In this document: piece after piece, positions 39,149-61,095 of the stretch
How positions within the stretch are numbered: position 1 is the stretch's first letter
Layout: every line of letters starts with the position of its first letter
DNA from: an uncultured Chloroflexia bacterium
Lineage (GTDB): Bacteria; Chloroflexota; Limnocylindria; Limnocylindrales; CSP1-4
Reading direction: 5' to 3'
Length of the DNA stretch: 64,000 nucleotides
NCBI GenBank assembly: GCA_963810065.1
Contig: CAWELX010000007.1
Location: forward strand, 1,170,154-1,234,153
Notes under the pieces: generated by a model
Told to the model about the DNA's origin: nothing
What the model saw: only the letters and a program-made list of their open reading frames with translations
Databases searched by the model: none
Made by a program: the position numbers and the translations under genes

Positions 39149-41335
39149 ATGGACGTTCGAGGCGACCGGGCCAGCGTGAGCCGTGCGGCCCGCCGCCTCG
39201 GCTTGCGGCTGGCGGTTGTCGCGGCCCTGGCTCTCGCCCTGCTCCTCGCCGCGTCCCCCCTCGCCGCCCCCGGCGTCCGCGCTGCCGCCCCGCGGGTGGC
39301 GATCATCGTCGGCCCGGTCGGGAGCCTGACCGCCTACTACCGCTCCGACGCCGAGAAGGCGGCCGCCGAGGCGCGCCGGTACACCGACGACGTCGTGACG
39401 GTCTACTCGCCCGACGCCACGTGGAGCGCGGCGCGGGCGGCGATGCAGGGCGCCTCGCTCGTCGTCTACCTGGGCCACGGCAACGGCTGGCCCAGCCGCT
39501 ACAGCAGCCGGCTCAACCCGCGGACCCAGGACGGCCTGGGGCTCAACCCGGTCGCCGGGCAGGGCAACCTCGCCCACCAGTACTTTGGCGAGGCGTACCT
39601 CACCGACCGGGTGACCCTCGCGCCCAACGCGGTGGTGGTCCTGAGCCACCTGTGCTACGCCTCGGGCAACTCCGAGCCCGGCCTCCCCGAGGGGACCCTC
39701 GCGGTGGCGAAGCAGCGCGTCGACAACTTCGCCGCGGGCTTCCTGGCGGCGGGCGCGTCCGCCGTGATCGCCGACGGCTATCTCGGCCCCGCCTACTACG
39801 TGCGCTCGATCCTCGCCGGGCGGGGCACCGTGGAGGGGATCTGGCGGGACGCGCCGAACTACCACGACCACGTCATCGCGTTCAAGAGCGTGCGGACCCC
39901 GGGCTTCACCGCGCTGCTGGACCCCATCAGGCGCGCGAGCGCGTTCTACCGCTCGCTCGTGACGCGCGCGGACCTGCGCTCCGGCGAGGTCGCCCGGGGG
40001 ACGGCCTCGGGTGCCGCTGCCTCGCGCGGTCCCGTGCCCGGGCCCGGGACGCCGCCGAGCGGATGGGAGGTCGTCCTCCCGCCGCAGCCTTCGGTCGCGC
40101 CCGACGCCTTCGACCTCGGGGCACAGCCCGGCACGCCGACGCTCACGGGGATGCCGCTGGCCGCCGCCACGATCCAGCTCCAGGTGCCCGTGGAGGTGCC
40201 CGCCGGGGTGACCCTTGGGACTGCCTACCGTCTGGGCACCCGCTGGATCCCGCTCGACGAGGCGGACGCGCCGGCCGATCCCGCGGCCAGCCCCGACCCC
40301 GCGGCCAGCCCCGATCCCGGCCCCAGTGCCGACCCGGCGGCCAGCCCCGACCCCGGTGCCAGCCCCGACCCCGCGGCCGGCCCCAGTGCCGACCCGGTGG
40401 CCAGCCCCGATCCCGGCCCCAGTGCCGACCCGGCGGCCAGCCCCGACCCCGCGGCCAGCCCCGACCCCGCGGCCGGCCCCAGCGCCACCGCCAGCCCGGG
40501 CACCGGGGCAGCCGACCCTCCGGATCTCGTCGCCCGCGAGTCGGCTGCGTCGCTCGTCGACGTCGTCCCCGCGACGGTCGCCTTCGGCGGGGTCACGGCG
40601 TCCGTCAACCTGCCGGCCACGAGTGGGCGCTACCGCCTGGAGGTCACCCTCCACGATGGCGACGGGGTCGTCCTCCCGTACGCGGTTCAGGCCGCGATCC
40701 CGGCCGTCGTCGTCCACGTCGGGGGCCCGGGCGCCGCCTGGCTCGACGCGCCGCCGTCCGTCTCGCTCAACGCCGGCACGCTCGCCTCCCTCCAGGTTGT
40801 AGCCACCAACGGCGAGGCGACGGCGTGGGGCGTCTGCACAGCCGGGCCGTCCCCCGCGGGCGCCGAGGCCGCCGCTTCCTGCCCCACCGTCCGCCTCGTC
40901 GGCCGCTGGGTCGCCCTCGCTGGAGGCGGCGGGACGGCGGCGCCGATGACCCGCGAACTCGCTGTCCCGGCCGCGACGGCGCAGACGACGTGGCTGTCCG
41001 GGCCGGTCCCCACCGAACCCGGCACTTACCTCCTCGTGGTCAGCCTCGAGCGCGCCACGGGTGATGGCCCGCCGCAGGTGCTGGGCCGACCCGTCACGGT
41101 CATGGTCCTGGTGGCCGCCGCTCCGCTGCTCCCGATCCCAGCTGACAGTCCCGCGCCGCTGCCAGCGACGCCGGGCGGCACCGACCCCGCGACCGTGCCG
41201 CTGTTGCCGACGGGTGGCGACGTCGATTCGACGCTCGTGCCGAGCGGCGGAAGCCTGCTTCCAACTCAGCCCGACTCAACCCCAGGACCAAGTGTCAGCA
41301 GCCCGCCCAGGGCCGAAGAGGGAGGTGGCCAATGA
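39149..41335 (+). CDS. Secreted protein, paralog B of 31062-32798 (caspase/gingipain-like His...Cys domain + PASPD-repeat linker + beta-rich C-domains + Pro/Thr-rich tail)
   Basis: Signal-like N-terminus (..LRLAVVAALALALLLAASPLAAPGVRA). RVAIIVGPVG...GASLVVYLGHGNG...AVVVLSHLCYASG has the same motif spacing as paralog A. A long 5' leader precedes it. The stop overlaps the next gene's start (ATGA 41332-41335). Confidence 0.55.
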   Translation: MDVRGDRASVSRAARRLGLRLAVVAALALALLLAASPLAAPGVRAAAPRVAIIVGPVGSLTAYYRSDAEKAAAEARRYTDDVVTVYSPDATWSAARAAMQGASLVVYLGHGNGWPSRYSSRLNPRTQDGLGLNPVAGQGNLAHQYFGEAYLTDRVTLAPNAVVVLSHLCYASGNSEPGLPEGTLAVAKQRVDNFAAGFLAAGASAVIADGYLGPAYYVRSILAGRGTVEGIWRDAPNYHDHVIAFKSVRTPGFTALLDPIRRASAFYRSLVTRADLRSGEVARGTASGAAASRGPVPGPGTPPSGWEVVLPPQPSVAPDAFDLGAQPGTPTLTGMPLAAATIQLQVPVEVPAGVTLGTAYRLGTRWIPLDEADAPADPAASPDPAASPDPGPSADPAASPDPGASPDPAAGPSADPVASPDPGPSADPAASPDPAASPDPAAGPSATASPGTGAADPPDLVARESAASLVDVVPATVAFGGVTASVNLPATSGRYRLEVTLHDGDGVVLPYAVQAAIPAVVVHVGGPGAAWLDAPPSVSLNAGTLASLQVVATNGEATAWGVCTAGPSPAGAEAAASCPTVRLVGRWVALAGGGGTAAPMTRELAVPAATAQTTWLSGPVPTEPGTYLLVVSLERATGDGPPQVLGRPVTVMVLVAAAPLLPIPADSPAPLPATPGGTDPATVPLLPTGGDVDSTLVPSGGSLLPTQPDSTPGPSVSSPPRAEEGGGQ
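40264..40500 (+). repeat. Coding tandem repeat (~18-24 nt units, gccagccccgaccccgcggcc-like) encoding (PAASPDP/GPSADPAASPDP)n inside paralog B
   Basis: Direct reading. The protein reads ADPAASPDPAASPDPGPSADPAASPDPGASPDPAAGPSADPVASPDPGPSADPAASPDPAASPDPAAGPS. The stretch is absent from paralog A, which has a single PAASPDPAA. Confidence 0.7.
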
Positions 41336-41979
41336 CCGCGACGACGATGGGCCAGTCTGACGCCCGCGCCAGCGCCCCCGAACCCCGCGCCGGTCGGGCC
41401 GACGCCGGGTTCCGCCTCCTGCCCGGCCGGGTGGTGGTCTACGCCTGGCTGCTGGCGGCGGTTCCGATCGCCCTCCTGCAGCTCGTGCACGCCGGCGTGC
41501 ACGAGCACCACGAGCTCCCGCCGGTGCTCCACTGGCTGCGCGACACGGCCCTTGCCGTGCCGCTCGCCGCTGTCGCGGTCGTCGTCGCCGCGCTCCTCGT
41601 CTCCAGGCTCCGACCGACGGAGCCGGGGGGGCGCGCGTCGTTGACGACCATGGCGCTCTGGGGGGCGCTCGCCGCCCTCCTGTTCGCCGCACTCAGCATC
41701 CCCGGAAACCAGATGCACGGCCTGCTGTTCGGCGCCGAGGAGGAAGAAGGCGTCAGCCTCCTCAACGACCTCGCGGCCGACGCCCTGTATGCGTTGGAGG
41801 CGGCGCTCCTCGTCATCGCCCCCATCGCGCTGCTCGCCGGGGTCCCCTGGCGGGGCGCGTGGCGGGCCACTCCATCCATGCAATCGGCCCAGGGTGCCGC
41901 GGCGATGGTCGCCGCGCCAGATGGGCCACTCGAGGCGCCCGCGAACGCGGGAGCGACCCACGACGGAGGCGATCGATGA
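41332..41979 (+). CDS. Hypothetical integral membrane protein (His-rich loop HAGVHEHHELPPVLHWL)
   Basis: 215 aa with 4-5 hydrophobic helices. It is translationally coupled to paralog B upstream (ATGA), and its stop overlaps the first mini-ORF ATG (ATGA at 41976-41979). Confidence 0.5.
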   Translation: MTATTMGQSDARASAPEPRAGRADAGFRLLPGRVVVYAWLLAAVPIALLQLVHAGVHEHHELPPVLHWLRDTALAVPLAAVAVVVAALLVSRLRPTEPGGRASLTTMALWGALAALLFAALSIPGNQMHGLLFGAEEEEGVSLLNDLAADALYALEAALLVIAPIALLAGVPWRGAWRATPSMQSAQGAAAMVAAPDGPLEAPANAGATHDGGDR

Positions 41980-42073
41980 ACGACACAGACCAGGTCGCCT
42001 CCGTCACCGCAGGAGGCGACAGATGAAGAACAGGCACCACGACGCCTCCATCACCGCGGGAGGCGATCGATGA
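41933..42073 (+). repeat. Three tandem 47-bp units, each ending GGAGGCGA(T/C)(C/A)GATGA (an SD-like GGAGG plus ATGA stop/start overlap). They create two 16-codon mini-ORFs (41976-42026 MNDTDQVASVTAGGDR; 42023-42073 MKNRHHDASITAGGDR) chained between the membrane-protein gene and the giant-protein ORF
   Basis: Direct reading: units at 41933-41979, 41980-42026 and 42027-42073 (period 47, ~75% identity, the last 20 nt nearly identical). Each unit's TGA overlaps the next ATG. The upstream membrane protein ends ..THDGGDR and both peptides end ..TAGGDR. Confidence 0.6.
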
Positions 42074-42141
42074 GCAGCAGCGACCACCGCGCCTCCGGGG
42101 CCGGCCTTCGACGGGCAACCAGGAACGAGGAGTACCAGGCA

Positions 42142-45100
42142 ATGGGTCATTCGCGAACAGGGCACCGGCCCAGGACGCTTCGGTTCCTGGGCATCTGGCT
42201 CGCCAGCGTGGCGATGATCGTGACGCAGCTGGCCGCGCCGGTGGCACAGGCCGCTCCGATCAACACCGCCGCCGCCACGCCCGCCGCGGCTCCGGCCGCC
42301 CCGACGAGCACGATCACGTTCGCGGTGAAGGCCGCGCGCACGGAGCTGAATGCCTTCGACGGGGCTCCGCGCACAGCGCTCCCCGCTGATCCGGCGGTCC
42401 CAACCGGGGTCAAGGAAGGCGACCCGGTCACCGCCTACAAGTGGATCGTCAACGAGGACAACACCGGCCAGAACACCACGCGCAACGCAGACCCCGGGTC
42501 GGCCTGCTCCGCATGGCTCGACGCCGCCCACACGGCTCCCAACCCGAACTACCCGGGTTCCTGCAAGTGGACTTCCATCGCCGGCCTCGCGAGCTCTGCC
42601 CCGGTCGCGGCCCAGGGCGACGAGACGACCGCCGACGGCACCTTCACGATCTCCAGCCTGGCCCCCGGCCGGTACCTCATCTCGGTGCTCGCCGACGGCT
42701 ACAAGCTCGACGGCGCCCCCTTCAGCGTCCCGATGGAGGCACCAGGCGTGGTCGACGTGCCACTGCAGCCGAGCCCCCTGCCGACCGCGACCATCAAGGC
42801 GCAGGTCTTTGACGACGTCACGTCGGCCAACGGCCAGTACGATCCCGGTGAGGACGGCCTGCCCGGGTTCGCCGGCTTCATCACTGACTACATCGGCCAG
42901 GTGACGACCGACGTCTTCGGCAACCCGCTGTGCACGAAGTACGAGGCCGGTGACGGGCCCAACGGGTACGCGTGGGTCGACGGCGCGCCCGTCGTCGCCG
43001 CCGACTCCCACGGTGGCAAGTGCCTGTCGGGCGACGCCAACATGGACGGCGTCGTGGACGCGGCCGACATCCCGCTGTACAGCGACCCGCAGCTTGGCCC
43101 GGGCGTGCTGACGATCCCGAACCTCGGCCCCAACCGTTACGCCCTGTCCGTCGTCCCGCCAACCGGCTCCAGCTGGGTCCAGACGACCACCCTCGAGGGC
43201 AACCACGACTGGGATTCCTGGGTGATGGAGGGCTCCACCGGCCTCGACACCGAGTTCGTCGTCGCCGGAGAGCCGTTCCCGGCCCAGATCTTCGGCTTCG
43301 TTCCCGGCCCGACGACCGGCGCCTGGACACATCCCGCAACCGGGACCTCGAAGCCGTATGGCGACAGCTTCGCCGCCGGCGGGACCGGCACCATCAAGGG
43401 CGTCGTGGACGCCATGAAGGTCTATGTGCCGACCAAGGGCGGCCAGTGCCTGCCGGGCACGATCTGGGGCGGCCTGTGCGGAGGGAAGGTCGACAAGCCG
43501 ATCGACAAGCCATGGATCGCGCTCAGCGATCTCAACAGCGGCGACACGGCCGTGTGGATGGGTCGCGGCAACGCCGACGGCACGTTCACGATCCCGCACG
43601 TCCCCGACGGCAGCTACACGATCACCTACTGGGACGAGCCCCAGAACTACATCCTCGATCTGCTCAACGTGACCGTGGCCAACGGCGAGACCGTCGACAT
43701 GGGGGTCCTTCCCCTGACGGGCTGGTTCACGAAGTTCGACGGCCATGTCTTCAACGACCTGAACCGCAACGGCAAGCAGGACGCCGGCGAGCCCGGCGTG
43801 CCCGACTTCACCCTGACCTTGCGCAAGCGCGAGAACTCGCTCATGGACCGCGGCGCGACCCTGGTCACGACCGACGCCAACGGCTACTACGTCATGGAGA
43901 ACGCCTACCCGCTCACGGAGTGGCTCGTCCTCGAGGCGTACAACGACCGCTACTACACGACCGGCGTCACCTATCAGGCCGACAACCAGCCCACGAAGAC
44001 CACGGTCCTGGGGGCCGGCGTCGACGTCAGCGTCCTGCCGATCATCGGCCTGTCCGGCCGGCTCGACTGGGGGGTCCACTTCTACGATCCGACCGGCGAC
44101 AACGGGATCGACCCGAAGAACGGCGGGATCGTCGGGTCCGTCAGCTACGACACCACCCGCAACGAGGTCAACCCGCAGTACGCCGTGGCAGAGGACTGGC
44201 AGCCCGGCGTCTCCGGCCTGACGGTCGACCTGTTCGCCCCGGTGCCCTGCCCGACGGACGGCAGCCAGCCCTGCGACGCCAACGGCGACTACGCCCTTGC
44301 GCCCGACGGGTCGTATGCCCGCGGCAAGCTCCTGAACACGTACGTCACCGAAACGTGGCAGAGGCCAACCGACTGCATCGCCCGCGGCGTGGATGGGACG
44401 CCTCTCGCCAACCCGGCCGACCAGCAGGTCCTGCCGGTCGGTCCGACCAAGGACTGCCTCGAAGGCCCCCTGATGGGGGTCCAGTTCGGGCCGTACCCGA
44501 CCGACCAGGGGACCGCCGACGCCAACTTCGGCGCCGCCGTCGACGGCAACTACGGCTTCGGCGACGGCTGCTTCAACGGCACGCTGGACGCCACTGACCC
44601 CGCCAACCCTGTCTGCGACGGCGGCACGTTCGAACCGCTGCCTGCCGACGACTACCTGGTCCACGTCAGCAACGTCAACGATCAGCAGGGCAACCCCGTC
44701 TACCACTTCACTCGTGAAGAGGACATCAACATCGCGACGGGCGACAGCTACGTCCCGCAGATCCCGCCGCCGGCCTGCGTCGGCGCGCTCCACACGGTGG
44801 ACGTGGCCGGCACGCCCGTCGACGCGAACAACAACCCCACCGACAACTACCCGGCGACGCAGATCCCCGACCCGTCCGGCCTCGGCTCCGCCACGATCTC
44901 GGTGCCGGCCTCGACGCCCACGGACAACCCTACCTTCGTCGGCATCGGCGGCTCACCCTACGAGGGCCTGGCCAAGCCGCTGTGCGACACGAAGCTCGTG
45001 TCGCTCCAGGACGGCAAGTCGATCGTTCCCGGGTTCAACGTCTTCACCGACGTGCCGCTCCCGAGCCGCTTCTTCGCCTACAACGTCGATGACCTCAACT

Positions 45101-48100
45101 TCTCGACCGACCCGAAGTCGCTGCTCTATGGAGAGAAGGCGGGCCTTCCGTTCACCCCCGTCGGCATCTATGACTTCGCCGACCGCCTGGTCACCACGTC
45201 CGAGACCGACTACAACGGCCTGTTCGACGTGCTCCTGCCGTCGACCGACCGGATCAGCTGCCCGACGCCATCGGGCGTCTGCGGCAACGTCTACCGCTTC
45301 GTCGGAAACGACCCGGGCATCCCCGGTCGCCTGAACACGAACTACAACCCGCAGTACCGGACGATCGCGGCCGACTTCGAGGCCTGGCCGGGCATCATCG
45401 TCCCGGCCGACACGGCGCCGACCCAGGTGGGCGTGACGATCCAGCTGCCTGGCACCACGACGTTCCAGGCGGTCTCGTGCCCGGTCAACGACCCGGCGGT
45501 CGCACCCACGACGCCCGAGCTCTACGCGATCGACCGGCCGTACGGCTACTCGGGCGATCGCTTCACGATCACGGGCCAAGGATTTGGGTCCACCCGCGGC
45601 ACGGTCAACTTCGACGGCGTGCCGCTGCCGAGCAACAACAACTGGGTCGTCTCCTGGACCCCCACCTCGATCACGATCGAGATGCAGAACTACGCCCAGG
45701 CGGCGGCCGGGCCGCATCAGCTCTCGGTCACGGCCAGCAATGGCAAGACCACGGTCAACGGGCTGACCTACCACTACCTGCGAAACGTCAACAACGCCGC
45801 CAACCGGTACCTGCCGCCGATCCTGGAGGTGGGTCCGAACGTCGCGCGAATCCGCGCTATCGGCCGGCCAACTCGCTCCCGGCTGCGGCCAACCACGCGA
45901 TCCAGAACGCGCTGGACGACGCTCCCGCGGGCGCGCTCGTCGTCGTCTATCCGAACACGCCGAGCGCCAATCCGCGGCTGAACCCGCGTGGCGCGTACTA
46001 CGAGAACCTCATCATCTCCAAGCGGGTGAAGCTGCAGGGCGTCGGCCCGGGCAGCCCCGACGGCAAGGTGCGCGGCACGATCATCGACGGCGGCGCGTTC
46101 GCCGGCGACAGCCCCGTGGCCGCGGACTGGTACACGACGATCGGCAACCTGGCGTGGGCCGGGAACCAGACCATCTACGACGGCGCGGACATCTCGATCT
46201 TCGTGCCGAGCAGCGGTAGCAGCGCCTTCCCGACGTCGTACGACGCCAAGACCGCACCGTCCGTCGACGGCTTCGACCTCCGCGGCGGCGACCAGCAGGG
46301 CTTCCCCGGCAACATCAACGTCATCGGCGGCGGGCCCACCGGTCTGCCCGGCGGCCTGGTGACCCAGGGCGGCGCCATCTTCGCCAACGCCTATGCCCGC
46401 AACCTGCAGATCACGAACAACGTGGTCCAGAACAACGGTGGAGCCTACGGCACGCTCCGCATCGGGACGCCGGACCTGCCGGCCCCCGACACGAACAATC
46501 ACAACGAGGGCGTCCGGATCGCCAACAACCGCATCATCGCCAACGCCGGCACCAACCTGGCCGGTGGCATCGGGATCTTCGCCGGCAGCGACGGCTACAC
46601 CGTCGCCGGCAACGACATCTGCGGCAACTTCTCTGCCGAGTACGGCGGCGGCCTGAGCGTCTACGGCCTCAGCCCGAACGGCTCCATCGACCACAACCGG
46701 ATCTACTACAACCAGTCCTACGACGAGGCGGGCGGGATCATGATCGCCGGCACGCTGCCGGTCGACCCGAACGCGAACTACGGGACGCCCAACGGCCCCA
46801 AGGGCTCGGGCTCCGTCGCCATCCATGACAACCTGATCCAGTCCAACCTCGCCAATGACGACGGCGGCGGGATCCGGTTCCTGATGGCCGGCGACTTCCC
46901 GATGAACGTCTACAACAACATGATCGTGAACAACGTGTCGACCCACGAGGGCGGCGGCATCGCCATCGACGACGCCCCCAACGTGCGGTTCGACAACAAC
47001 ACGGTCATGAAGAACGTCACGACCGCGACGGCCGTGACCAGCGACGGCCAGCCGGCCCCGGCCGGCCTGTCGACGGGCCAGAACAGCGCTCAGCTCCAGG
47101 CCACGTTGCCGGGCGGCTCGGAGCTCTTCAGCAACCCGCTCCTCTTCAACAACATCTTCTGGGACAACCGGGCCGGGTCGCGCACGACGGGAAGCGGCAC
47201 CGTGACCGGCATCGGGACGCTTGACGCCAACCACTGGGACATGGGCGTCCCGGGCACGTCGTTCGTGCTCTCGCCCACCAACTCGATCCTCCAGTCCGAG
47301 ACGACGAACCACAACGACGTGGTCGCGAGCCCGACCAACACGGTCGACCAGGATCCGCGGGTGGCTTCTTCGTACGACACGGCGCTGACGTTCAGCCCGT
47401 GGCGCACGAACCCGAACTTCGTCGGCGCGATCCTTGTTGCCGCCGACCTGCCGCCGAACCTGCTCGGCAACTACCACCTCGGCGGCACCGGCTCGCCGGC
47501 CTACAACCTCGGCGCGGCGTCCAAGGCCACCATTGCCGCGCCCGCGTTCGACATCGACGGCCAGGTGCGTCCTGCGCTCGGCGGCTTCGATGCCGGCGCC
47601 GACGAGTTCTCGGGCGCCCAGGCGGACCTCTCGATCACCAAGGACGATGGCGTTAGCACGGTCAATCCGGGTGGTGCCCTCAGCTACACGATCACCGTGA
47701 CCAACGCCGGCCCCAACGGCGTGGCGCTGGCGCCGGTGACCGACAACATCCCGACAACGCTCACCGGCGCGACCTGGACCTGCTCGGTTCCGGCGGCGGT
47801 GGGCTATGCCTGCGGCGCCGCCAGCGGCAGCGGCAGCATCAACACGACAGTCAGCCTGCCGTCCGGCGGCAGCGCGACCTTGACGCTGAACGGAACGGTC
47901 GCCCCGAGTGCGAGCCTCACGCTGGCCAACACGGCCTCCGTTGCACCCCCCGCCGGCACCACCGACCCGACGCCGCTGAACAACACTGCGACCGACACGG
48001 ACACCGTCGTGCTGGACGCCATCTTCGCGAACGGCTTCGAGACGGGCGCCCGCCCGTGGGGCTGGACGAGCGCAACGCCCGCCGGCACCGGCACCGCCGC

Positions 48101-48641
48101 CACGAATCGCCTGAACGTGACGGCGGGCGGGGCTCTCGTTGGCAACCTCGGCCTGCAGGCGCAGGGCAACAACACCAACTACGTCCAGTACAACTTCGGC
48201 ACCGGGGCCAACCCCGCCACGCCGACGTATGACGCGCGGTTCTACTTCCGGCCCAACGCCAACAGCTCGACCGGCAACGACATCTTCAGAGCGGCCGCGG
48301 GCACCAACAACGCGTCCTTCAACGGCCCGCTGTTCCGCGTGCGGTACCGCCTCAACGCCGGAACGCCGCAGGTCCAGATCCAGATCGGGACGGGGACCGC
48401 CAACGCGTCGTGGACGAACCTCCTCGGCGGCACGGCGAACAACGTCATCGAGGTGGTCTGGCAATCGGGGACCACGCTGCAGCTGTACGTCAACGGCGGC
48501 CTGGCGCAGACCCTGACCGCGGGCACCGGCTCGGTGATGGCAGTCCGCCTGGGCTCCGTGACGACCACCGGCAACGCCACCCTCATGTACTTCGACGCCT
48601 TCGCCTCCAAGCGCTCGGTGTCGCCCCTGGTCGGGCCGTAG
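42142..48641 (+). CDS. Giant secreted multi-domain surface protein (~2,100 aa if read through one apparent frameshift at ~45,850): Cna-B/SdrD-B/CarboxypepD_reg-like beta-sandwich repeats, IPT/TIG domain, right-handed parallel beta-helix repeats, DUF11 repeat, and a ~200-aa C-terminal domain
   Basis: ORF 42070..45981 (signal peptide MGHSRTGHRPRTLRFLGIWLASVAMIVTQLAAPVAQAAP; GTFTISSLAPGRYLISV / DGTFTIPHVPDGSYTITY / NGYYVMENAYP beta-sandwich motifs; IPT-like YAIDRPYGYSGDRFTITGQGFGSTRGTVNFDGVPL) ends in an Arg-rich out-of-frame-looking tail. ORF 45477..48641 in the +1 frame continues with beta-helix repeats (NNVVQNNGGAYGTLRIG.., IANNRIIANAGTNLAGGIGIF.., IHDNLIQSNLANDDGGGIRF.., NNMIVNNVSTHEGGGIAID), then DUF11 (ADLSITKDDG..YTITVTNAGPNG), then the C-terminal domain. 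The second ORF has no plausible start of its own. Confidence 0.6.
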
Positions 48642-48696
48642 TGCCATGCCTGACCACGACATCACCCGTCCAACCGTCGCCGAGGGAGACAACGTC

Positions 48697-50100
48697 ATGA
48701 GCGACCAGAGCAGGTTGCTGCTGAGCCGGCGCCAGGTGCTCAAGTACGGCGGGCTCACCGCCGCGGCCACGGCCGCGGCGGCCCTGGGCCCCGGCTGGTG
48801 GGGACCATCCTCCAGCCGGGCCGGGCCCTCGCCGTGGATCGTCCCCCGGACCTCAAGCTCGTCGGGACCGACGGCTGGATCTAGCTGCCAGGCCCCCAGA
48901 TCAACTCCAGCGCCTACGGCGTGGTCCACCCGGACAGCTATGCGCCCGCCGGGCGCACCGACTACATCTTCGGGTTCGCGAACGGGACGGGCGTCCCGGA
49001 CCGGGACCTGCACCTGCTCAAGAACAAGGCCCAGCACTCTGCCCCGATGTTCTGGGCCAAGGAGGGCGAGGAGTTCCGGGTCCAGCTGACGAACGTCGGC
49101 CTGGCCCAGCGCCCCGACCTGTTCGACGCCCACACCGTCCACTGGCACGGCTTCAAGAACGTCATCCCGTTCTTCGACGGCGAGCCGACCGGCTCGGTGT
49201 CGGTGCCGCAGGGCCAGACGTTCACCTACGTCTACAAGTCCCACGACCCGGGCACCTACATGTTCCACTGCCACGTCGAGGACGTGGAGCACGTGCACAT
49301 GGGGATGACCGGCCTGGTGTTCGTCCGGCCGGCCCAGGATCACGAAGGGAACACCGCCGGAGCGCCGTCTCCTGGTACGGAGCGAACCGCGCTTCCAGGA
49401 GCCATCGAGCCTCCGGGCATACCGCTCGGCTAGCCTACAACGACAGCGTCGGCCGATCATCCGGCGTCGACGGGCTTCGACCGCGAGTACGGGATGTTCC
49501 TCAGCGAGCTCTGGGCGGAGGCCCACTGGGCCGACGCCCACATCCAGCTTCCGGAGTGGAGCGACTACCACGCCGACTACGCGCTGCTCAACGGCCGGGT
49601 CTGTCCCGACACGCTCGCACCGAACGGGGGCTCGATCGACCCCTTCAACGTCGCTCGGAACGGCGACAAGACGCTGGTCGCGCCGGCCGGGCACCCGGAA
49701 CTCGGGAGCCAGCCGATCTCGTCGCTCGTGACCTGCAACGCGGCGAACGTGTCCTCCTGCGGTTCGCGAACCTCGGCTTCAAGGAGGCCGCGATGACTCT
49801 CACCGGCATCAAGCTGCGGGTCGTCGGGCGCGACGCCACGCTTCCTGCGCGGGCGCGATGCGGTGGACCTGACCTACTCTCGTCGAGACGAACACGCTGG
49901 CATTCGGCGCCGGCGAGAGCTTCGACGCGATCTTCACCGCGCCCGCCCACAGCGGCGCCGGCCCGGGCGGGTCCGACACGTACGTCCTCTACAACCGGAC
50001 GTACATCCGCGCCGACAACACGGGCGGCGGCGGCGGACAGCGCACCGAGGTGCGCGTCTACGCACCGGGCACCGTCCCGCCCAGGTACCCGAACGGCTGA
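48697..50100 (+). pseudogene. Multicopper oxidase (cupredoxin) gene 1, degraded: Tat-type signal, several frameshifts, one in-frame TAG
   Basis: MSDQSRLLLSRRQVLKYGGLTAAATAAAALG (twin-Arg signal), then the frame is lost. ..DLKLVGTDGWI-TAG-LPGPQINSSAYGVVHPDSYAPAGRTDYIFGF...HTVHWHGF...PGTYMFHCHVEDVEHVHMGMTGLVFVRP (Cu-site His motifs). Later real-looking segments (FDREYGMFLSELW..., ERVLLRFANLGFKEAAMTLTGIKLRVVGRDATLP, ..AFGAGESFDAIFTAPAHSGAGPGGSDTYVLYNRTYIRADN...) sit in three different frames. Confidence 0.5.
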
Positions 50101-50129
50101 GACGGCGGCTGAGGAACGGAGTGATCACG

Positions 50130-51492
50130 ATGCTGCGATTCACGCCACCGCGCACCCGCGCCTGGCTCTCCCTCGCCGGCCTCGTCCGCGCTCGTCTCCG
50201 GCGTCCTGTCGCCGCCGCCGCCCGGCCGACGTCGGCCGCGACGCAGGGGATCAACAGGGCCGGCATCGCCTGCACCACGAGCACCGGCACCAACCCGACG
50301 TTCACCCTCACGACCAGCGGGGCTACATCAACCTGCCGGACGGCACCACCGCCTACATGTGGGGGTTCTCGGAGGGCAGCGGGCCTTCCAGCACCCGGGC
50401 CCCGTCCTCTGCGTCAACGAGGGCGACACCGTCACGATCGTCCTGAAGAACGCCCTCACGAACGCGCCGAAGAGCGCGCCGGCCGTCTCCTGATCTTCCC
50501 CGGCCAGGTGGACGTCACTGCCGACGGCGCGCCGTCGCAGCCGGACTTCGACGGAGCCGGCGCGCACCTCGCTCGCCACGGCGGCGCAGCCGAGCGGCGG
50601 CACGGTGACGTACAGCTTCGTCGCCGCGCAGCCCGGGACCTTCCTCTACGAGAGCGGCGGCGGGGGCGAGCGGCGGACTCGACTCGAGCCCGCAGATCCA
50701 GGTCCGGATGGGCCTCTTCGGCGCCCTCATCGTGCGCCCGGCCTCGGCGCGAAGTTCGCCTACGACCGGGCCGACTCGCGGTTCAACCCGGACACCGAGT
50801 TCCTCGCCCTGCTGTCCGAGATCGACCCGTACCTCAACGCGGCGGTCCTCAAGGGCAAGACGTTCAACTTCAACACCTACCACCCGCGCTACTGGCTCAT
50901 CAACGGCCGCGGCTTCCCGGACAGCATCGCCGACAACTTCGCCGCCTGGCTGCCCAGCCAGCCGTACGGCTCCCTGGCGGCGATCCACCCGAACGACAAG
51001 TACCTCGCGGACGGGTCACCCGGACCCCAGCATCGACCCGCTGTCCTGTCCTGGGTGGGGACGGAGGACTACCCGTTCCATCCGCACGGCAACAACGGCA
51101 AGGTGATCGGGCGCGACGGAGCGGCCGCTCGCCGGGCCCGCCGGCCAGGACATGTCGTTCGACGAAGTTCGTCGTGAACATCGGACCGGGCCAGACCTGG
51201 GACGTCCTCTTCAGCTGGCGCGACGCCGAGGACTACTCGCCCGACGAACCCGGTCCCGGCGAGCGAGCCGAACCTGCAGGACCTCACGGTCGGGATGTTC
51301 TACGGCGGCAGCCCGTACCTGGGCGTCCAGGAGCCGATGCCGCCGGGGATCTCGACCCTCAACGAGTGCGGCGAGTTCTACATCATCGCCCACAACCACG
51401 CGCTGTACCAGATCACGTCCTGGGGCGTGAACATGACCGGGCCGATCACCTACACGCGGGTCGATCCGCCCCTGCCCAACAGCTGTCCGTGA
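50130..51492 (+). pseudogene. Multicopper oxidase gene 2, degraded by multiple frameshifts
   Basis: GAGGAACGGAG RBS + ATG at 50130 (MLRFTPPRTRAWLSLAGLVRA). Protein-like islands alternate between all three + frames: YINLPDGTTAYMWGFSEGSGPS; PVLCVNEGDTVTIVLKNALTN; VTYSFVAAQPGTFLYESGG; GLFGALIVRPA..KFAYDRADSRFNPDTEFLALLSEIDPYLNAAVLKGKTFNFNTYHPRYWLINGRGFPDSIADNF...YPFHPHGNNGKVIGRDG; KFVVNIGPGQTWDVLFSWRDAEDYSPDEPGPGE; MFYGGSPYLGVQEPMPPGISTLNECGEFYIIAHNHALYQITSWGVNMTGPITYTRVDPPLPNSCP. Confidence 0.5.
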
Positions 51493-51528
51493 TGAGAGGT
51501 AGGGGAACGACGATGATCCGGACGTACG

Positions 51529-54430
51529 ATGAAGCGAACCCTCCTCTCCTCCCTGGCCCTGGGTCGGCGCTGCTGCTCGGGGCGCTGCTGGTCCCCGGGA
51601 CCGCGTCGGCCGCCGGGCCGATCACCTGGACCGCCTGCACGGCGCCGACGGCGGGCGCATCGGCGCGGCTGTCACCTGCGACCTGTGCGCGACGACCGGC
51701 ACCGGCCCTGCCCGGCACCACGGTCGGGATCGGAGCGTGCCGACGTCGGACGCGACGGGGCACGCCCGGGTCGGCCACCGTGCCCGGACCCGTGCTGGTC
51801 GTGACCGCGGGCGACACCGTCACGGTCAAGCTGCCCAATCGACCTGGCCGCGACGTCGCTCCTGTTCGACGGCCAGCCGGGCATCCCGGAGATTACCGGC
51901 GTCACCGCCGGCAACAGCGTGACCTACACGTTCACGGCCGCGCTGCAGCCGGGCACGTACCTGTACGAGGCCGGGCTGACCCCGGGCGCCGAGTACCAGG
52001 TGGCGATGGGCATGTACGGCGTGCTCGTCGTCCGGCCGGCCGGAGCCCCCGGTCAGGCCTACGCAGACGCTCGACCGCCTTCAACGAGGAGGCCGTCGTC
52101 GTCCTCGGCGAGGTCGACCCGACCCTGAACAACAGCAGCACGCCGCGTCGTCAACCTCCGGTACTTCGCCCCGACGTACCAGCTCGTCAATGGGTCGGCG
52201 TACGCGATCACGGCCGCACGCCCCGGCGATCAACGTGACCTCCGGGAACACGCTCCTGCTGCGCTACGCCAACGCCGGCATCCAGCACCACTCGATCGGA
52301 GTGCTCGGCCTGCGCCAGTCCGTGCTCGCCGCGGACGGCAGCCCGATCGCCCACCCCCGGGGCATGGTCGCCGAGACGATCGCGCCGGGCCAGACGGCCG
52401 ACATTCTCGTGAGCCTCCCGGCGACCACCGCCGCCTCCACCAAGTACGCGCTCTACGACGCGAGCATGACGCTGAACAACAGCACCGGGTCCGCCATCGG
52501 CGGCATGCTCGCTTTCGTCGATGCCGCTCCGAGCGGCTCGTCCTCCGGTGACACCGTCGGACCGATCACGAGCGGCGTCGCGCTCGACACGACGACCGCC
52601 TTACCGCATCGGTCAGCGACATGTCCTCCGGCGGCTCGAGCGTAGCCGGCGCCGAGTACTTCGTCGACACCCCCGGGACAGCGGCCTCGGCACGCCGATG
52701 ACCGGCATGTTCCCGTCCGATCCGGCCGCCGTCTCGGCCACGCTCACCCTCCCGCTCCCGACGGGAAACCACACGATCTACGTCCACGGCCTCGACGGCG
52801 CCCTCCCGACCGCGAACTGGGGCAGCTTCAGCACCGTCACGTACACCCTCGACGCGGTCGGGCCGACGACGACGGTGCCGTGCCTGACACCGAGCCCGAA
52901 CGGTCGGTGATCGTCGACATCAGGCAACCGCGACGATTCCGCGGCGGCAATAGCATCGTCACGACGGCCGAGTACACCCTCGACGGCGGCAGCCATGCGT
53001 CCTTCCGAGCCCTTCACGTGCCCGATGACCCTCAACAAGACCGCACCGATCGTCAGCCTGACGGCGACGATCACCAGGCCAGCGTGCTCGGCGCGGGCCC
53101 CACCGTGGACGTCCGCAGCCGGACGCAGCGGGCAACTGGGGTACCGTCGCCTCGGCCACCCTCACGGTCGACGCGGTCGGACCTTCGGTCTCGGGGGTGA
53201 CCGCGAACCCGCCCGCCAACAACGGCAGCTACGGCCAGAGCAGCGGCAACCCGTCGGTCCGGGTCTCCGCGACCTTCGATGACACCGCGTCGGGCGGCAC
53301 CGTCGCCGCGGGCGAGGGCTTCATCGACGCCGTCGGCTCCCGGCACGGGCTTCCCGTTCGTCGCGACCGATGGGGTGTTCAACGCGACGAGCGAGACCGG
53401 CTACGCCGACATCCCGCTCACGACGATCAACCTCCTGTCCCTCGGCAACCACACGATCAGCGTGCGCGGCAAGAACGCGTTCGGCTGGGGGGCGCGAGCG
53501 TCCATCGACTACCTCATCGACCGGACCGCGCCGACGTTCACCGGCATCACCCTGACGCCGTCCACGGAGACTGCGGCCGCCAGCGTCACCCTGACGGTGG
53601 TCGGCTCGGCCGATCCGCTGGTCACAGGCCTCGCCAGCGGCGTCGCTGGCGGCGAGTACTGGATCGACACGGCCGCCCCGGCACGGGCGCCGGCAGGCCT
53701 TCACCGGCCTACGCCGAGCATCCCGGTGACCACCCTGACGACCGGCACCCACACGATCGGCGCGCGCATCCGCGACGCGGCCGGCAACTGGAGCACGATC
53801 ACCCAGACCGCGACGGTGACGGTCAGGTCGCGGACGGCATCTTCTCCAACGGCTTCGACACCGGTGGCGCGCCCTGGGGCTGGTCCAGCCGCTCGTCCAA
53901 CAGCGCCACGCGCCTGAACGCGACGCCGGTGCCGCCATCGTCGGCGCGCGCGGCCTTCAGGCGCAGGGCAACAACACGAACTACGTCCAGTACAACTTCG
54001 GCACCGCGGCCAACCCGGCATCGGCGACCTACGACGCGCGGTTCTACTTCAACCCGAACGGCAACGTCTCGACCGGCAAGGACATCCTGGCGCCGCGGGA
54101 CCAACACCGCGTTCGGCACCCCGCTGTTCCACGTCCGCTACCGAACGCCGGCACCACGCCGCAAGTCCAGATCCAGGTCGGGGCGACCGCCAACCCGTCG
54201 TGGGTGACATCCTCCGCGGGCTCGAACGTTATCGAGGTGGTTTGGAGCGTCGGCCGCGACCGGAGCCTCACGCTCTACGTCAACGGCGTGTCCTCTCAGA
54301 CGCTCGCCACGGCCACCGTCGGCTCCGTCGGATCGGTCCGCCTGGGCTCCGTGACCACCGGCGGGTCACACCCTCATGTACTTCGACTCCTTCACCTCCA
54401 AGCGAACGGTGTCGCCGCTCATCGGGCCGT
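51529..54430 (+). pseudogene. Multicopper oxidase gene 3 fused to Ig-like repeat modules and a C-terminal domain homologous to the C-terminus of the giant protein; heavily frameshifted
   Basis: MKRTLLSSLALG + (frameshift) SALLLGALLVPGTASAAGPITW (signal peptide). MCO islands: GPVLVVTAGDTVTVKLPN, VTYTFTAALQPGTYLYEAGLTPGAEYQVAMGMYGVLVVRPAGAPGQAYAD, ..NVTSGNTLLLRYANAGIQHHSIGVLGLRQSVLAADGSPIAHPRGMVAETIAPGQTADILVSLP... ~90-aa Ig-like modules from ~52,500 (..GNHTIYVHGLDGALPTANWGSFSTVTYTLDAVGPTTTV; ..GNHTISVRGKNAFGWGARASIDYLIDRTAPTFTGITLTPS; ..GTHTIGARIRDAAGNWSTITQTATVTV). At 53,830-54,430: DGIFSNGFDTGGAPWGWSS...QAQGNNTNYVQYNFGTAANPASATYDARFYF...TPQVQIQVGATANPSW...NVIEVVWSVGRDRSLTLYVNGVSSQTLATATVGSVGSVRLGSVTTGG..(shift)..TLMYFDSFTSKRTVSPLIGP, colinear with 48,000-48,641. 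Confidence 0.4.
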
Positions 54431-54504
54431 AGCGCCATGACGAGCATCGAACGGTCCGAGCGGGACCGCAGCCTCACGGCTGCGGTCCGGAAGCCGGGGA
54501 TCCC

Positions 54505-55000
54505 GTGCCGGCTCCTCGAGCCGGCCGGGGTCACCCCGAGCCGCCGGGTGCGGCCTCGCACCTGATCGCGGCGATCGTCGGCGTCCTCGTGCTGCCGATC
54601 GCCGTGGCGGCGACTGTCTGGACGCAGCCCGACGGCCGCAGCGAATGCCGCCGCCGCCCGCGTCGTGTCCGCGTCGGACCTCGAGGAGGAGTACGGCATC
54701 AAGGTCAACCTCGTGGCCGTGAGCGCCGGCGGCGGCATGATCGACGTGCGGTTCACGGTCATCGACAAGGACAAGGCGCTCCACCTCCTCCACGACGCGA
54801 CGAGCGATGCCGGCCCTGCTCGTCGAGCCGAGCGGCACCGTGATCCCGCGCCGACGGGGATGCGACACAAGGTCACGATCCTCGACGGGGGGACGTACTT
54901 CATCCTCTACGCGAACCCCGGCGGCGCGATCCAGGCCGGCACGCCCGTGTCGGTCGTGATCGACGACGTCCGGCTCCAGCCAATCGACGCGCAGAGCTGA
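54505..55000 (+). CDS. Small membrane-anchored protein (TM helix + ~110-aa beta-rich extracytoplasmic domain), at least one frameshift near the 5' end
   Basis: ..ASHLIAAIVGVLVLPIAVAATVWTQP (TM) in one frame, then AAAARVVSASDLEEEYGIKVNLVAVSAGGGMIDVRFTVIDKDKALHLLHDATSD...GMRHKVTILDGGTYFILYANPGGAIQAGTPVSVVIDDVRLQPIDAQS in the next. Function unknown; it lies between the MCO block and the subtilase. Confidence 0.3.
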
Positions 55001-55013
55001 CTGGAGACCCCCG

Positions 55014-57939
55014 ATGCGACGGACCATCACCCTGGCCCTCGTGGCCGTCCTCCTGGTCGCGGCCCTGCCCGCCGCGGCCGCCGGGGCGTCCTTGCCGGGC
55101 CAGGTCGGTTCGCGCATCACCACGTCCGCTGGCGCCGCGGCCGCTGCCCCGGCGCCAGCGGACATGACCACCGTCATCGTCACGATGCGCGACCGGGCCG
55201 ACCTTGGAGCCATCGGGGGCGGCACGCGAGCCGCCCGCCTCGCCGCCATCATCCGGGCACTTCGCGCCCGGGCGGGGCTGTCCCAGGCCCCGCTGCTGTC
55301 CTTCCTCCGCCGGCAGGCCGCGCTCGGCCGCGTTGCCCGCCAGGACTCGTTCTGGGTCTTCAACGGCCTCTCGGTCACGGCCACGCCGGCAGTGGTGGCC
55401 CTGATCGCCGCCCGGGCCGACGTCGCGAGCGTCACGCCGGACGAGATCCCGATCGTGCCGGTGGCGGCCGCAGTGCCACTCCGGCCGGCCGCTGCTCCTC
55501 CAACGTCCTTCGCCCCGGCGGAGACGAACGTCTCCCTCGTCAATGCCCCGGCCCTGTGGGCCCTCGGGTACACCGGGCAGGGCGTGGTCGTCGCCAACCT
55601 CGACTCCGGCGTTGACGCGAGTCATCCGGACCTGGCGGGTCGGTGGCGGGGCGGCACCAACTCCTGGTTCGATCCTTACGGTCAGCACCCGACGACGCCG
55701 ACGGACCTCAGCGGCCACGGCACGGCGACCATGGGCGATCATGGTCGGCGGAGACGCCGGGGGAACGTCGATCGGCGTGGCCCCTGGTGCGACATGGATC
55801 GCCGCCAAGATCTTCAACGACGCCGGCACGGCAACCGCCACCGCCATCCACGCAGCCTTCCAGTGGGTCCTCGACCCGGACGGCGACCCGGCAACCGCCG
55901 ACGCGCCACAGGTCGTGAACAACTCGTGGGCCTACGGGACGCCGGGTTGCGACCTGGCCTTCCAGCCGGACCTGCAGGCGCTGCGCGCGGCGGGAATCCT
56001 GCCGATCTTCGCGGCCGGCAACTACGGCCCGGGGACCGCGACGAGCGTCGAGCCCGGCGAACTACCCCGAGGCACTCGCCGTGGGCTCGATCAAGAACAC
56101 GAGCGTCCTCGACGGGACGTCGAGCCGCGGGCCGTCGGCCTGCGGCGAAGCGGCGACGGCCTATCCCGAAATCGTCGCCCCCGGAGTGAAGGTCCGGACG
56201 ACCGATCTGCACGGCTTCTACCAGGTGGCAACGGGGACCTCCCTCGCCGCGCCGAACGTTGCTGGTGCCCTGGCACTCCTGCTGAGCGCCCACCCGGGTC
56301 TCAGCCCGGACGCCCAGGCCGCTGCGCTCACCGGCTCGGCGGTCGATCTCGGCGTGGCCGGGCCCGACAACAGCTACGGGTACGGGCGCCTGGACGTCCT
56401 CGCCACGTATGACGCTCTGACGGCGGCGCGACGCCCACGCCGACGCCCACGCCGACGCCCACGCCGACGCCCACGCCCACGCCCACGCCGACGCCCACGC
56501 CCACGCCGACGCCCACGCCCACGCCGACGCCGACGCCGACGCCCACGCCCACGCCGACGCCCACGCCCACGCCCACGCCCACGCCGACGCCCACGCCCGA
56601 CGCCACCGGACCGGTGACCTCCGGCCTGGCGCTGGCGCCGGCTCAGACCAACGGGTCGGTCGACGCGGCCCTCAGCGCCACCGGTGACGACTCGGCCACC
56701 GGCCGCTCGAACATCGTGGCGGCCGAGTACACCATCGACGGCGCCCCGGCCGTCGCCATGTCGGTCGGTGCACCCGCCCCCGTCGCCGGTCTGCACGCGA
56801 CCATCCCGACGACAACCCTTGCCGAGGGCACTCACGTGGTCGCGGTGCGCAGTGAGGATGCGGCCCTCAACTGGGGGGCGACGAGCACCATCGTCCTCGT
56901 CGTGGACAAGACTGCGCCGGCCGTCAGCTCTATCTCCGCTGCGCCGAACCCGACCGTGGGGGCGGCGAGCGTCACCCTGCTGGCCTCGGCGACCGATGCC
57001 GGCAGCGGCGTCACGGCAGCCGAGTGGTTCACCGGCGCAGATCCGGGCGCAGGCAACGCCGCAGCGATGACCCCGACCGGCACTGGCCCGTGGACCCTTG
57101 GTGCCACGGTCACCGTCAGTACCTGGGCGAACGGCAGCTACACGCTCAGCGTGCGGGCGCGGGATGCTGCGGGCAACTGGAGTTCGCTCGGGAGCACCGT
57201 GCTCGTGGTTAGTGCATCATCGCCGCCGCCGGCGCTCCTGTACTTCTCGACGCTGGGCAACACGGCAGTCCCGGGCGTGGGAGGCACGGCTGACGATGCC
57301 GACATCTACGCCACGAACGGCACGACCTACACCCGGGAGATCGACGCGAGCGGCACAGGCAGCCTGGGGCTGCCCAGCGGCGCCAATGTCGACGGCTTCG
57401 TCCGAGTCGACGCCACCCACTTCTACGCGTCCTTCAGCGCCACGAACACCTCGGTGCCCGGCCTCGGCAATGTCCAGGACGAGGACGTCGTCTACTACAA
57501 CAACGGTGTCTGGTCGGTCTACTTCGACGGCACGGCCCACGGCCTGACCGCCAACAACCAGGAGATCGATGCGTTCAGCATCGTCGGGGGGACCCTGTAC
57601 TTCTCGACATTCGGGAACACCAATCCCCCGGGTGTCACCGGCACGGCTGACGACGCCGACATCTACAGCTGGAACGGATCGACCTACAGCCGGGTCTGGG
57701 ATGCGACCGCCAGCGGTCTCCCGGGTACAGCCAATGTCGACGGCCTCAAGCTCGTCGACGCCACCCACTTCTTCCTTTCGTTCAGCTCCACGACCACGAC
57801 GGTGCCGGGCCTGGGTGCGGTTCCAGACGTGAACGTCGTCTATGACAGCGCCGGAACCTGGTCGACCTACTTCGCCGGCGCCGCACACGGGCTGGTCGCC
57901 GGGACCGGCCAGGACGTGGACGCCATCGACATCCCGTAG
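55014..57939 (+). pseudogene. Secreted subtilisin-like serine protease (S8) with TP-repeat linker and C-terminal Ig-like + duplicated beta-rich domains; three apparent frameshifts
   Basis: Signal peptide MRRTITLALVAVLLVAALPAAAAGAS. Pro-domain/catalytic: VVVANLDSGVDASHPDL (Asp), DLSGHGTATMG (His), shift ~55,745, ..GVAPGATWIAAKIF...VVNNSWAY (Asn), shift ~56,060, ..VATGTSLAAPNVAGALALLLSAHPG (Ser), shift ~56,429. Then (TP)n in frame 1, and TPDATGPVTSGLALAP... Ig-like modules (..TIVLVVDKTAPAVSSISAAPNP.., ..TLSVRARDAAGNWSSLGSTVLVV), then two ~110-aa internal repeats (LYFSTxGNTxxPGVxGTADDADIYxxNGxTYxR...ANVDGxxxVDATHFxxSFSxTxTxVPGLGxVxDxxVVY). Confidence 0.6.
56431..56598 (+). repeat. Hexanucleotide coding microsatellite (ACGCCC/ACGCCG)n encoding a (Thr-Pro)n linker of ~28 dipeptides
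   Basis: Direct reading. Frame 1 gives TPTPTP..., continuous with the downstream domain ORF 56614..57939. The upstream catalytic domain is in frame 2 and would read RPRRRP. Confidence 0.8.
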
Positions 57940-60492: not shown

Positions 60493-61095
60493 TCAGGCCG
60501 GCTTCCGCCGGTTCGCCAGCGCCAGGCCGATGGCGACGATGCCGACGACGAGGCCGGCTCCGCCGAGCACGAGGGCCGGCACCACGAGAGCAGCCGCGTC
60601 CTCGCCCTTCTGCGCCGAGGCTTCCAGCTCGGCCGCGGTCGGGAGCTGGACCGGGAACTGGAGGGCGGTCGCCTCCTGGACCTCGTTGAAGCCCTCCGGG
60701 CTCGAGGTGAACGACTCGTCGATGGCGGCGCCCTCGATCGCACCGGTCAGGTGGAACGTGTAGGGGCCGGCCACCGTCGGGATGAAGACCGACTCGTAGG
60801 CGCCCGGCTCGCCTTCGCGGGTCGAGAGCGGCAGGTCGCGCTTCTGGTCGCCGACGATCACCTCGGCCTTGACGGTCGTTTCGAGACCCTCGACGGGCTG
60901 TCCGTCCTTGTTCACGAAGAACTCCAGGCCGCTCCTCCCGCCGACGTACACCGGCTCGTCGATGAAGCCGACCTCGACCTCGTAGCCGGCGACCTCGCGG
61001 CCTTCGTGGGCCAGGACGGGAGCGGCGGTGAGCAGGAGCAAGAGCAGCGGGATGGCAGCCGCCATCCCGCGACGAATGGCATGCGCGGACAACAT
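60493..61095 (-). CDS. YcnI-like (DUF1775) secreted copper-binding protein with a C-terminal membrane anchor
   Basis: MLSAHAIRRGMAAAIPLLLLLLTAAPVLA|HEGREVAGYEVEVGF... After signal-peptide cleavage the N-terminus is His (the YcnI Cu site), beta-rich. The C-terminus AALVVPALVLGGAGLVVGIVAIGLALANRRKPA is a TM anchor. It lies immediately upstream of CopCD, like ycnI-ycnJ. Confidence 0.6.
   Translation of the reverse strand: MLSAHAIRRGMAAAIPLLLLLLTAAPVLAHEGREVAGYEVEVGFIDEPVYVGGRSGLEFFVNKDGQPVEGLETTVKAEVIVGDQKRDLPLSTREGEPGAYESVFIPTVAGPYTFHLTGAIEGAAIDESFTSSPEGFNEVQEATALQFPVQLPTAAELEASAQKGEDAAALVVPALVLGGAGLVVGIVAIGLALANRRKPA

Follow-up and report, generated by a model that had tools for sequence, protein, structure and literature searches.

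Does a run of adjacent, frame-broken genes in a metagenome-assembled genome (MAG) record genes that are being lost, or an intact gene cluster read through a faulty consensus sequence? The question is posed by 64,000 nucleotides from an uncultured Chloroflexia bacterium (Chloroflexota; Limnocylindria; Limnocylindrales; CSP1-4; GenBank assembly GCA_963810065.1, contig CAWELX010000007.1, positions 1,170,154 to 1,234,153), here referred to as the window, in which all coordinates are given. On its + strand lie three genes for multicopper oxidase (MCO)-like proteins, a gene for a small membrane protein, and a gene for a secreted S8 protease, and every one of them is disrupted. A preliminary description, made from the sequence alone, treated the region as a decaying island of extracellular oxidative genes or, alternatively, as a badly assembled repeat-rich region. 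Had decay held, the region would have shown an entire set of extracellular oxidative genes in mid-loss. Here, we find it likely that the frameshifts are consensus errors over an intact, conserved cluster at a strain-variable locus and do not reflect gene loss. Strain-variable loci in long-read-only metagenome assemblies can mimic pseudogene clusters; pseudogenes would then be overcounted, gene calls interrupted, and conserved operons missed in annotation.

Because the G+C content of the window is ~72%, raw lists of open reading frames (ORFs) are uninformative. Frame breaks were mapped using a frame plot of G+C at third codon positions (GC3) and a codon-usage Viterbi tracker trained on the window's own clean ORFs. 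Both resolve the + strand from 48.65 to 56.6 kb into ~45 short segments of changing frame and show the + strand genes at 10.2-23.4, 28.2-32.8, and 39.2-41.2 kb as single-frame blocks. A frameshift-aware dynamic-programming alignment between intact orthologous proteins and the DNA of the window places 50 frame-shifting indels and 2 in-frame stops in the ~3,000 codons from MCO1 to the S8 gene, which confirms that reading frames hop and that all five genes are disrupted. The starts (ATG) and stops of all five nevertheless lie at the expected places, and the frame-corrected translations match Pfam Cu-oxidase_3/_2, Big_13, and Peptidase_S8 (a TAT_signal match, for twin-arginine translocation, was found below its cut-off). 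The gene content first proposed (an MCO-like trio, Ig-like modules, a small protein, and a subtilase) is thus upheld. The Ig and LamG modules, once taken for separate genes, are present as the C-terminal part of the MCO3 gene, and relatives encode the MCO3 cupredoxins, Ig repeats, and LamG-like domain as one ORF of 970-980 aa. The damage, previously bounded at 48646-57939, extends beyond those limits, since the giant gene next to the cluster's MCO genes has a +CG frameshift at 45843. The main features are as follows, where L followed by a number denotes a related locus used for comparison.

42070..48641, + strand: giant secreted protein of ~2,190 aa with CarboxypepD_reg, SdrD_B, TIG, beta-helix, DUF11, and LamG-like C-terminal domains (Pfam)
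48697..50100, + strand: MCO1, with a putative TAT-type export signal and two cupredoxin domains; 8 frameshifts and a TAG stop at 48882
50130..51495, + strand: MCO2, with two cupredoxin domains and no type 1 copper (T1) cysteine; 11 frameshifts
51529..54432, + strand: MCO3-Ig-LamG; 22 frameshifts and a stop at 52908
54437..55000, + strand: small single-pass membrane protein of ~190 aa, conserved after MCO3; 6 frameshifts
55014..57939, + strand: secreted S8 subtilase of 974 aa; 3 single-base indels (55736 +C, 56050 +G, 56420 -A)
48785..56420: frame-broken, low-quality stretch of ~7.6 kb, consisting of a core at ~49.4-55.0 kb and flanks of at most 1.4 kb that are near-identical to L018

The most direct evidence comes from L018, an independent contig (ENA ERZ25039527 contig_128938) that is syntenic with the window from a regulator gene upstream of the giant gene to a CopC-CopD gene downstream of the protease. 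All five genes are called intact there (MCO1, 471 aa; MCO2, 455 aa; MCO3, 978 aa; the small protein, 192 aa; S8, 974 aa). From 55.0 to 60.05 kb, the two sequences are 99.8-100% identical. Between 55,000 and 56,300, 1 substitution and 3 single-base indels separate them, and these indels are precisely the frameshifts of the S8 gene; between 56,450 and 60,050 there is no difference at all. At the other edge of the damage, a one-base deletion at 48785 (G4 to G3) and the stop at 48882 (TAC to TAG) are unique to the window, in surroundings that are 98-100% identical to both L018 and L003. Where the sequences are near-identical, the frameshifts therefore vanish in an independent assembly: L018 lacks the three indels of S8, the one at 48785, and the TAG at 48882, and its ORFs are intact, which contradicts the idea of a gene set being lost. 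One patch at 56323-56436, at the end of the S8 catalytic domain before the PT linker, shows 15 mismatches and one indel between window and L018 amid otherwise 100% identity; it reflects either micro-recombination or local consensus trouble beside an (ACGCCC)n repeat.

L003 is conspecific with the window by its giant gene (96-98% DNA identity), across which the alignment contains only in-frame gaps plus one 2-nt gap, the +CG. From ~49.4 kb, identity to L003 falls to 72-92%, with ~90 indel events. In a three-way profile, L003 and L018 are 96.5-99% identical over 50.0-53.6 kb without a single gap column; the outlier there is the window, at 72-92% and with many gaps. Over 42.0-44.8 kb the roles change: window and L003 are 95-97% identical, their alignment having a single in-frame gap of 3 nt, and it is L018 that stands apart and is frame-broken. 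L018 hops between frames over its first 8.5 kb, including a non-cluster gene, and is clean thereafter; at 45-47.3 kb it is 94-98% identical to the window yet differs from it by 23 indels, each 1-4 nt long and none divisible by three. Divergent stretches thus coincide with frame-broken ones in both window and L018, at different places in each. An all-against-all comparison of the related loci, which are species representatives at most ~91% identical, gave no further near-identical pair of an intact and a broken copy.

As a separate observation, 42.0-56.6 kb has the appearance of a recombination mosaic of conspecific strains, in which identity alternates between 96-100% and 72-92% from block to block and the partner changes too. 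The C-terminal modules of MCO3 and S8 are also swapped among relatives, with a LamG-like domain in some and paired repeats in others.

What, then, is the divergent core? Its mismatches to L003 fall preferentially at third codon positions (0.24, versus 0.06-0.08 at the other positions, in S8; 0.17 versus 0.05-0.07 in MCO2), as they are in the giant gene, which served as a control (0.062 versus 0.012-0.015). The third-position bias in the core is 2-4 fold, which is not the pattern of relaxed selection, and all of the invariant His/Cys columns of MCO1, MCO2, and MCO3 are kept in the window (20/20). At third positions the core differs from L003 by 0.13-0.27, against 0.06 for the giant gene, which is more than can have accumulated after the two separated; the core must therefore be a different allele and not a decayed one. 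Judged by codon-position bias and retained residues, it is a genuine, constrained allele of another lineage, neither noise nor the outcome of long neutral decay. The remaining lesions sit on a divergent allele with signatures of purifying selection and with starts, stops, and catalytic residues in place, a combination that does not fit the decay first proposed. A 50:50 consensus blend with the common allele was considered and is unlikely, given that a tile-by-tile nearest-neighbour analysis places the core at about equal distance from all relatives. A search for an intact copy of the divergent allele gave, as the best MCO3 relative in the databases, one of 66-67% identity.

The cluster itself is conserved. 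Species-representative genomes were scanned with frame-corrected MCO2, followed by tblastn at the matched loci; the scan returned 17 loci, mostly in Chloroflexota MAGs and many of them from the "MFD" series. At these loci tblastn recovered, mostly as single full-length high-scoring segment pairs (HSPs), a small membrane protein, the giant protein, MCO1, MCO2, MCO3-Ig, the small protein, and S8. The order regulator, giant (2,200 aa), MCO1, MCO2, MCO3-Ig-LamG, small protein, S8 is kept in at least 20 loci of Chloroflexota and one Myxococcota MAG, many of them intact, so that the intact orthologous MCO triplets looked for in related genomes do exist in many loci. The co-occurrence of relatives with conserved flanks is real, because four related species (L001, L002, L003, and L007) share one sample, MFD05942. 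The module recurs in Caldilineaceae, where a Response_reg+GerE gene lies at the upstream edge of the L020 locus. In the Myxococcota MAG, the contig breaks off after a giant gene and the MCO1 gene behind it. From these genomes, the cluster appears to be widespread and unstudied in soil Chloroflexota and to occur in at least two Chloroflexota classes. The MCO triplet, at first thought unusual in itself, is therefore a conserved, widespread module, and each paralogue has thousands of homologues; its distribution of copper ligands, described below, is still of interest. Nor is the term "island" apt: the base composition of the cluster is unremarkable in the window, with no island-like shift, and the genes belong to a widely conserved cluster that includes the giant gene. 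A mobile island was considered and dropped, as neither flanking inverted or direct repeats nor a compositional shift was found.

The spectrum of lesions bears on their origin. Random substitutions would create stops 2.1% of the time by our calculation, and 50 indels beside 2 stops therefore indicate a frame-breaking process dominated by indels. In natural mutation and decay, substitutions are well in excess of indels. Runs of at least 4 nt occur at 12% of frameshift sites and at 13% of random positions, so homopolymers are not enriched, and the classic homopolymer error was set aside as an explanation, a point that counts against consensus error; natural slippage is equally unsupported. The sole tandem repeat here is the PT linker. 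Of the two parts of the alternative offered in the preliminary description, bad assembly survives and repeat richness does not, the likely ingredients being strain or haplotype divergence and long-read consensus error.

Similar lesions occur outside the cluster. A DUF3090 gene (~26729, - strand) has a domain profile match over 1-170/170 (E = 8e-60) that runs across a single-base frameshift, and in a FAD oxidoreductase gene (~5422, - strand) the FAD_oxidored domain (E = 6e-76) spans a single-base frame junction. These sporadic single-base frameshifts in unrelated genes indicate indel errors across the assembly. A third candidate junction, in a membrane protein gene at ~8119 (- strand), is unconfirmed, with no Pfam domain across it. 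Lesion density is ~4 per 55 kb elsewhere in the window versus 50 per 9.3 kb in the stretch first described as an island. Among the related loci, the tracker detected dense frame-hopping at other sub-stretches of the cluster in L007, L010, L012, L015, L016, and L017, all of which are MFD MAGs, and found L001, L003-L006, L009, L011, and L014 clean; these comprise three of the four loci that are not from MFD. L008, the remaining one, lay outside the tracker set; in tblastn, its MCO2 and its S8 catalytic region each gave one long HSP.

Such recurrence has a plausible technical background. The MFD-LR MAGs were built from Nanopore-only reads with a Flye --meta assembly and one round of Medaka (PMC12313526); their authors used coding density as a screen for Nanopore-associated errors, and the error source discussed for that catalogue is homopolymers (PMC12313526). 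The lesions described here resemble consensus error in Nanopore-only metagenomes of this kind (MFD-LR; PMC12313526) in being mostly 1-2-nt indels that produce apparent frameshifts and in occurring sporadically in conserved genes; related loci also come from that catalogue. They differ in their ~75-fold concentration in one 7.6-kb divergent-haplotype stretch and in their positions away from homopolymers. The window is most likely itself a Nanopore-only assembly, given its near-identity to L003 and L018 and the contig naming.

Taken together, these data are consistent with the following sequence of events. In the core, at ~49.4-55.0 kb, the contig would follow a divergent, functional allele of a second, probably rarer, lineage. 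The consensus of this core and of 0.6-1.4 kb of its flanks was perhaps never properly corrected, leaving ~0.6% single-base indels and hence a frameshift every 100-300 bp. Low read depth or polishing with mixed haplotypes on a branch of the assembly graph could be the mechanism, and the ~7.6-kb length of the noisy stretch would be read-like. Several points weigh against this reading. The core lacks a closer intact allele in the databases, which puts ~40 lesions there beyond one-by-one comparison. Read depth and haplotype mixing are deduced, as is the Nanopore-only origin of the window. The change of TAC to TAG at 48882 is a substitution, which is less typical of long-read error. Noise also reaches 0.6-1.4 kb into flanks expected to be well covered.

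Genuine pseudogenisation, in which the MCO/S8 operon has lost function in this strain and gathers frameshifts and stops, would account for the disruption of every gene from MCO1 to S8, for the two in-frame stops, and for frameshift sites that are not at homopolymers; the lesions are also limited to secreted genes with linked functions, apart from one in the giant gene alongside. The resemblance to pseudogene clusters of reductive evolution, of the type known in Mycobacterium leprae, lies in adjacent genes with many frameshifts. Here, unlike there, lesions vanish in an independent identical contig, are dominated by indels, leave constraint and functional residues in place, and stop short of intact neighbours. 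We therefore regard pseudogenisation as unlikely: the S8 stretch has 3 indels against 1 substitution, followed by 3.6 kb identical to L018; only 2 stops accompany 50 indels; codon-position bias, copper ligands, catalytic motifs, and all starts and stops are kept; and divergence of the core from the conspecific L003 implies a different allele. Moreover, unrelated conserved genes of the window are frameshifted too, and like damage occurs elsewhere in several related long-read MAGs and in the giant gene and a non-cluster gene of L018.

A mixed origin, with a real recombinant allele, a few real recent mutations (e.g., the TAG at 48882 and the +CG at 45843), and consensus error for most indels, is suggested by the sharp boundaries of the core, one of which falls at ~55.0 kb in the intergenic region between the small gene and S8, as homologous recombination would give. 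Frequent recombination at this locus is evident from the mosaic of window, L003, and L018; the TAG reflects a substitution and the +CG an expansion of a dinucleotide repeat. A real recombinant and a haplotype switch in the assembly graph look alike in these data, and a few odd lesions are expected from error alone at ~4 sporadic lesions per 55 kb, and we consider this version very unlikely. Segmental duplication, with window and L018 as paralogous copies in one genome that have decayed in complementary fashion, would explain why their intact and broken parts are complementary and why they are 100% identical over 5 kb. It seems extremely improbable, as duplication followed by decay is not expected to leave 100% identity beside 20-25% divergence, and complete-looking related contigs (1.5-2.8 Mb) gave one MCO2 match each in a single genome scan. 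In addition, the broken part of L018 includes a non-cluster gene and, where near-identical to the window, differs from it mostly by 1-2-nt indels. Consensus error over an intact cluster thus remains the likely explanation, and the proteins encoded by that cluster can be considered from their corrected translations.

The copper ligands are split between MCO1 and MCO2. For MCO1, the matches to Cu-oxidase_3 (43-45 bits) and Cu-oxidase_2 (38 bits) exceed the gathering thresholds; Cu-oxidase_3 scores are 47 bits for MCO3 and 24 bits for MCO2. The MCO1 N terminus has an SRRQVLK motif, with a TAT_signal score of 20 bits against a cut-off of 22.7 and a TIGR01409 score of 16.9 against a cut-off of 16.7. 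The MCO proteins approach none of the NCBIfam equivalog thresholds. In domain 1 of MCO1 the T1 site is complete (HTVHWHG and HCHVEDVEHVHMGM); it is unchanged across 11 sequences and also in Caldilineaceae. Through the motifs HTVHWHG and HCH..H..M, this domain supplies the T1 site and 4 histidines of the trinuclear cluster. Domain 2 of MCO1 lacks the two HxH pairs. The C-terminal domain of MCO2 has invariant FHPHG and (A/S)HNH motifs, the domain-2 pattern of 3g5w, and the T1 Cys is absent from both MCO2 and MCO3. MCO3 has two cupredoxin domains without a ligand set, followed by Ig-like repeats (Big_13/Y_Y_Y) and a LamG-like C-terminal domain. No chain therefore holds all eight trinuclear-cluster histidines: MCO1 has the two domain-1 pairs, MCO2 the two pairs of its C-terminal domain, and MCO3 none. 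This split is invariant across 10 intact orthologues and Caldilineaceae (window, 48697-54432; L018, 10001-15782; L020, 7001-12697).

The closest solved structures to MCO1 are type-C two-domain MCOs, namely 3g5w (Nitrosomonas europaea), 3gdc, and 2zwn (mgLAC), with E values of 1e-13 to 2e-09. An AlphaFold2 model of MCO2 (predicted local distance difference test score of 70) matched two-domain MCO and NirK folds, with a template modeling (TM) score of 0.68 on 2zwn, calculated on the target, and with low confidence near the HNH motif. The likeness to type-C enzymes lies in the T1 site and the HxH/HCH motifs of MCO1 domain 1 and in the C-terminal domain of MCO2, with the two HxH pairs typical of domain 2. 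The known enzymes are homotrimers with all ligands in each chain, whereas here two neighbouring genes share the ligands between them, and the third paralogue has none and is fused to Ig/LamG modules.

The division of ligands over MCO1 and MCO2 suggests a heteromeric oxidase. Because domain 1 of each subunit in homotrimeric two-domain MCOs has the trinuclear cluster between itself and domain 2 of the neighbouring subunit, an MCO1-MCO2(-MCO3) heteromer with one composite site is a reasonable hypothesis. More tentatively, the trio might assemble into a ceruloplasmin-like heterotrimer, a ring in which six cupredoxin domains make up one composite active site, and be secreted together with the giant adhesin-like protein. 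The corresponding assignment of roles, also doubtful at present, would have MCO1 give the T1 site and half of the trinuclear histidines, MCO2 the complementary half, and MCO3 the Ig/LamG targeting modules. Literature searches on heteromeric two-domain MCOs and on Limnocylindria MCOs returned nothing relevant. The split ligands are a testable lead toward a possible new heteromeric type of multicopper oxidase.

The S8 protein is a subtilase with a variable C terminus. Pfam PF00082 covers profile positions 1-288/288 at E = 5e-36 in the window and E = 3e-45 in L018; the corrected window translation contains the catalytic motifs DSGVD, HGTA, and GTSLAAP and has 99% protein identity to the intact L018 ORF. 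The protein consists of a signal peptide, a propeptide, the catalytic domain, the PT linker (56431-56604), Ig modules, and two ~115-aa C-terminal repeats. It resembles subtilases with C-terminal Ig-like extensions (Peptidase_S8, MEROPS S8) in its full-length match, D/H/S motifs, signal peptide, and propeptide region, and differs from them in that the PT linker, Ig modules, and paired ~115-aa repeats vary among relatives and are missing at this position from L003. The small membrane protein at 54437-55000 has no family match in Pfam/NCBIfam searches.

Upstream, the giant gene is cut into two ORFs by a 2-nt CG insertion at 45843-45844 (GTCGCGCGAATCC versus GTCGCGAATCC) that is missing from L003 and L018; in L003 the gene is one ORF. 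Its C terminus recurs at the end of MCO3. As previously described, the ~200-aa C-terminal domain of MCO3 is a second copy, with DNA at 48004-48648 and 53832-54439 ~75% identical and protein ~60% identical. The neighbouring genes are intact:

38167..38832, + strand: GerE/LuxR-type response regulator of 221 aa, with the exact protein present in the collection
41332..41979, + strand: small membrane protein of 215 aa, with the exact protein likewise in the collection and, at the equivalent place ahead of the giant gene in most related loci, tblastn matches of 45-93% identity
58521..60461, - strand: CopC-CopD fusion of 646 aa, with matches above cut-offs to PF04234 (73 bits, E = 4e-20) and PF05425 (47 bits, E = 4e-12)
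60493..61095, - strand: secreted, C-terminally anchored protein of 200 aa

The 215-aa membrane protein has no Pfam match. The downstream copper-handling module was correctly recognized as regards CopC-CopD, the DNA of which is 100% identical to L018. The YcnI-like assignment of the adjacent 200-aa protein fell away, as neither YcnI/DUF1775 nor any other Pfam/NCBIfam family matched it at E<=0.001; it is weakly YtkA-like (PF13115, E = 0.0013, below the cut-off). CopCD is not adjacent to the cluster in L003, and its adjacency in the window strain fits a need for copper supply.

A hairpin array at 41965..42097 (+ strand) precedes the giant gene. It comprises three tandem 39-nt units at a spacing of 47 nt, the third of which includes the giant start codon (42070), and each unit has GGAGG, an ATG 7 nt on, and a 3' arm, CGCCTCC, that pairs with the Shine-Dalgarno sequence. 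The array folds at -62 kcal/mol (z = -3.3). Such units occur in 1-3 copies at the start of the giant gene in 9 related loci, including L001, L002, L003, L007, L009, L015, L017, and L018. The array may be a translational control element in which the 3' arm sequesters the Shine-Dalgarno sequence. In L002, a second unit of this kind at ~20051, ~18.6 kb downstream of the first, hints at another giant-gene-like cluster nearby.

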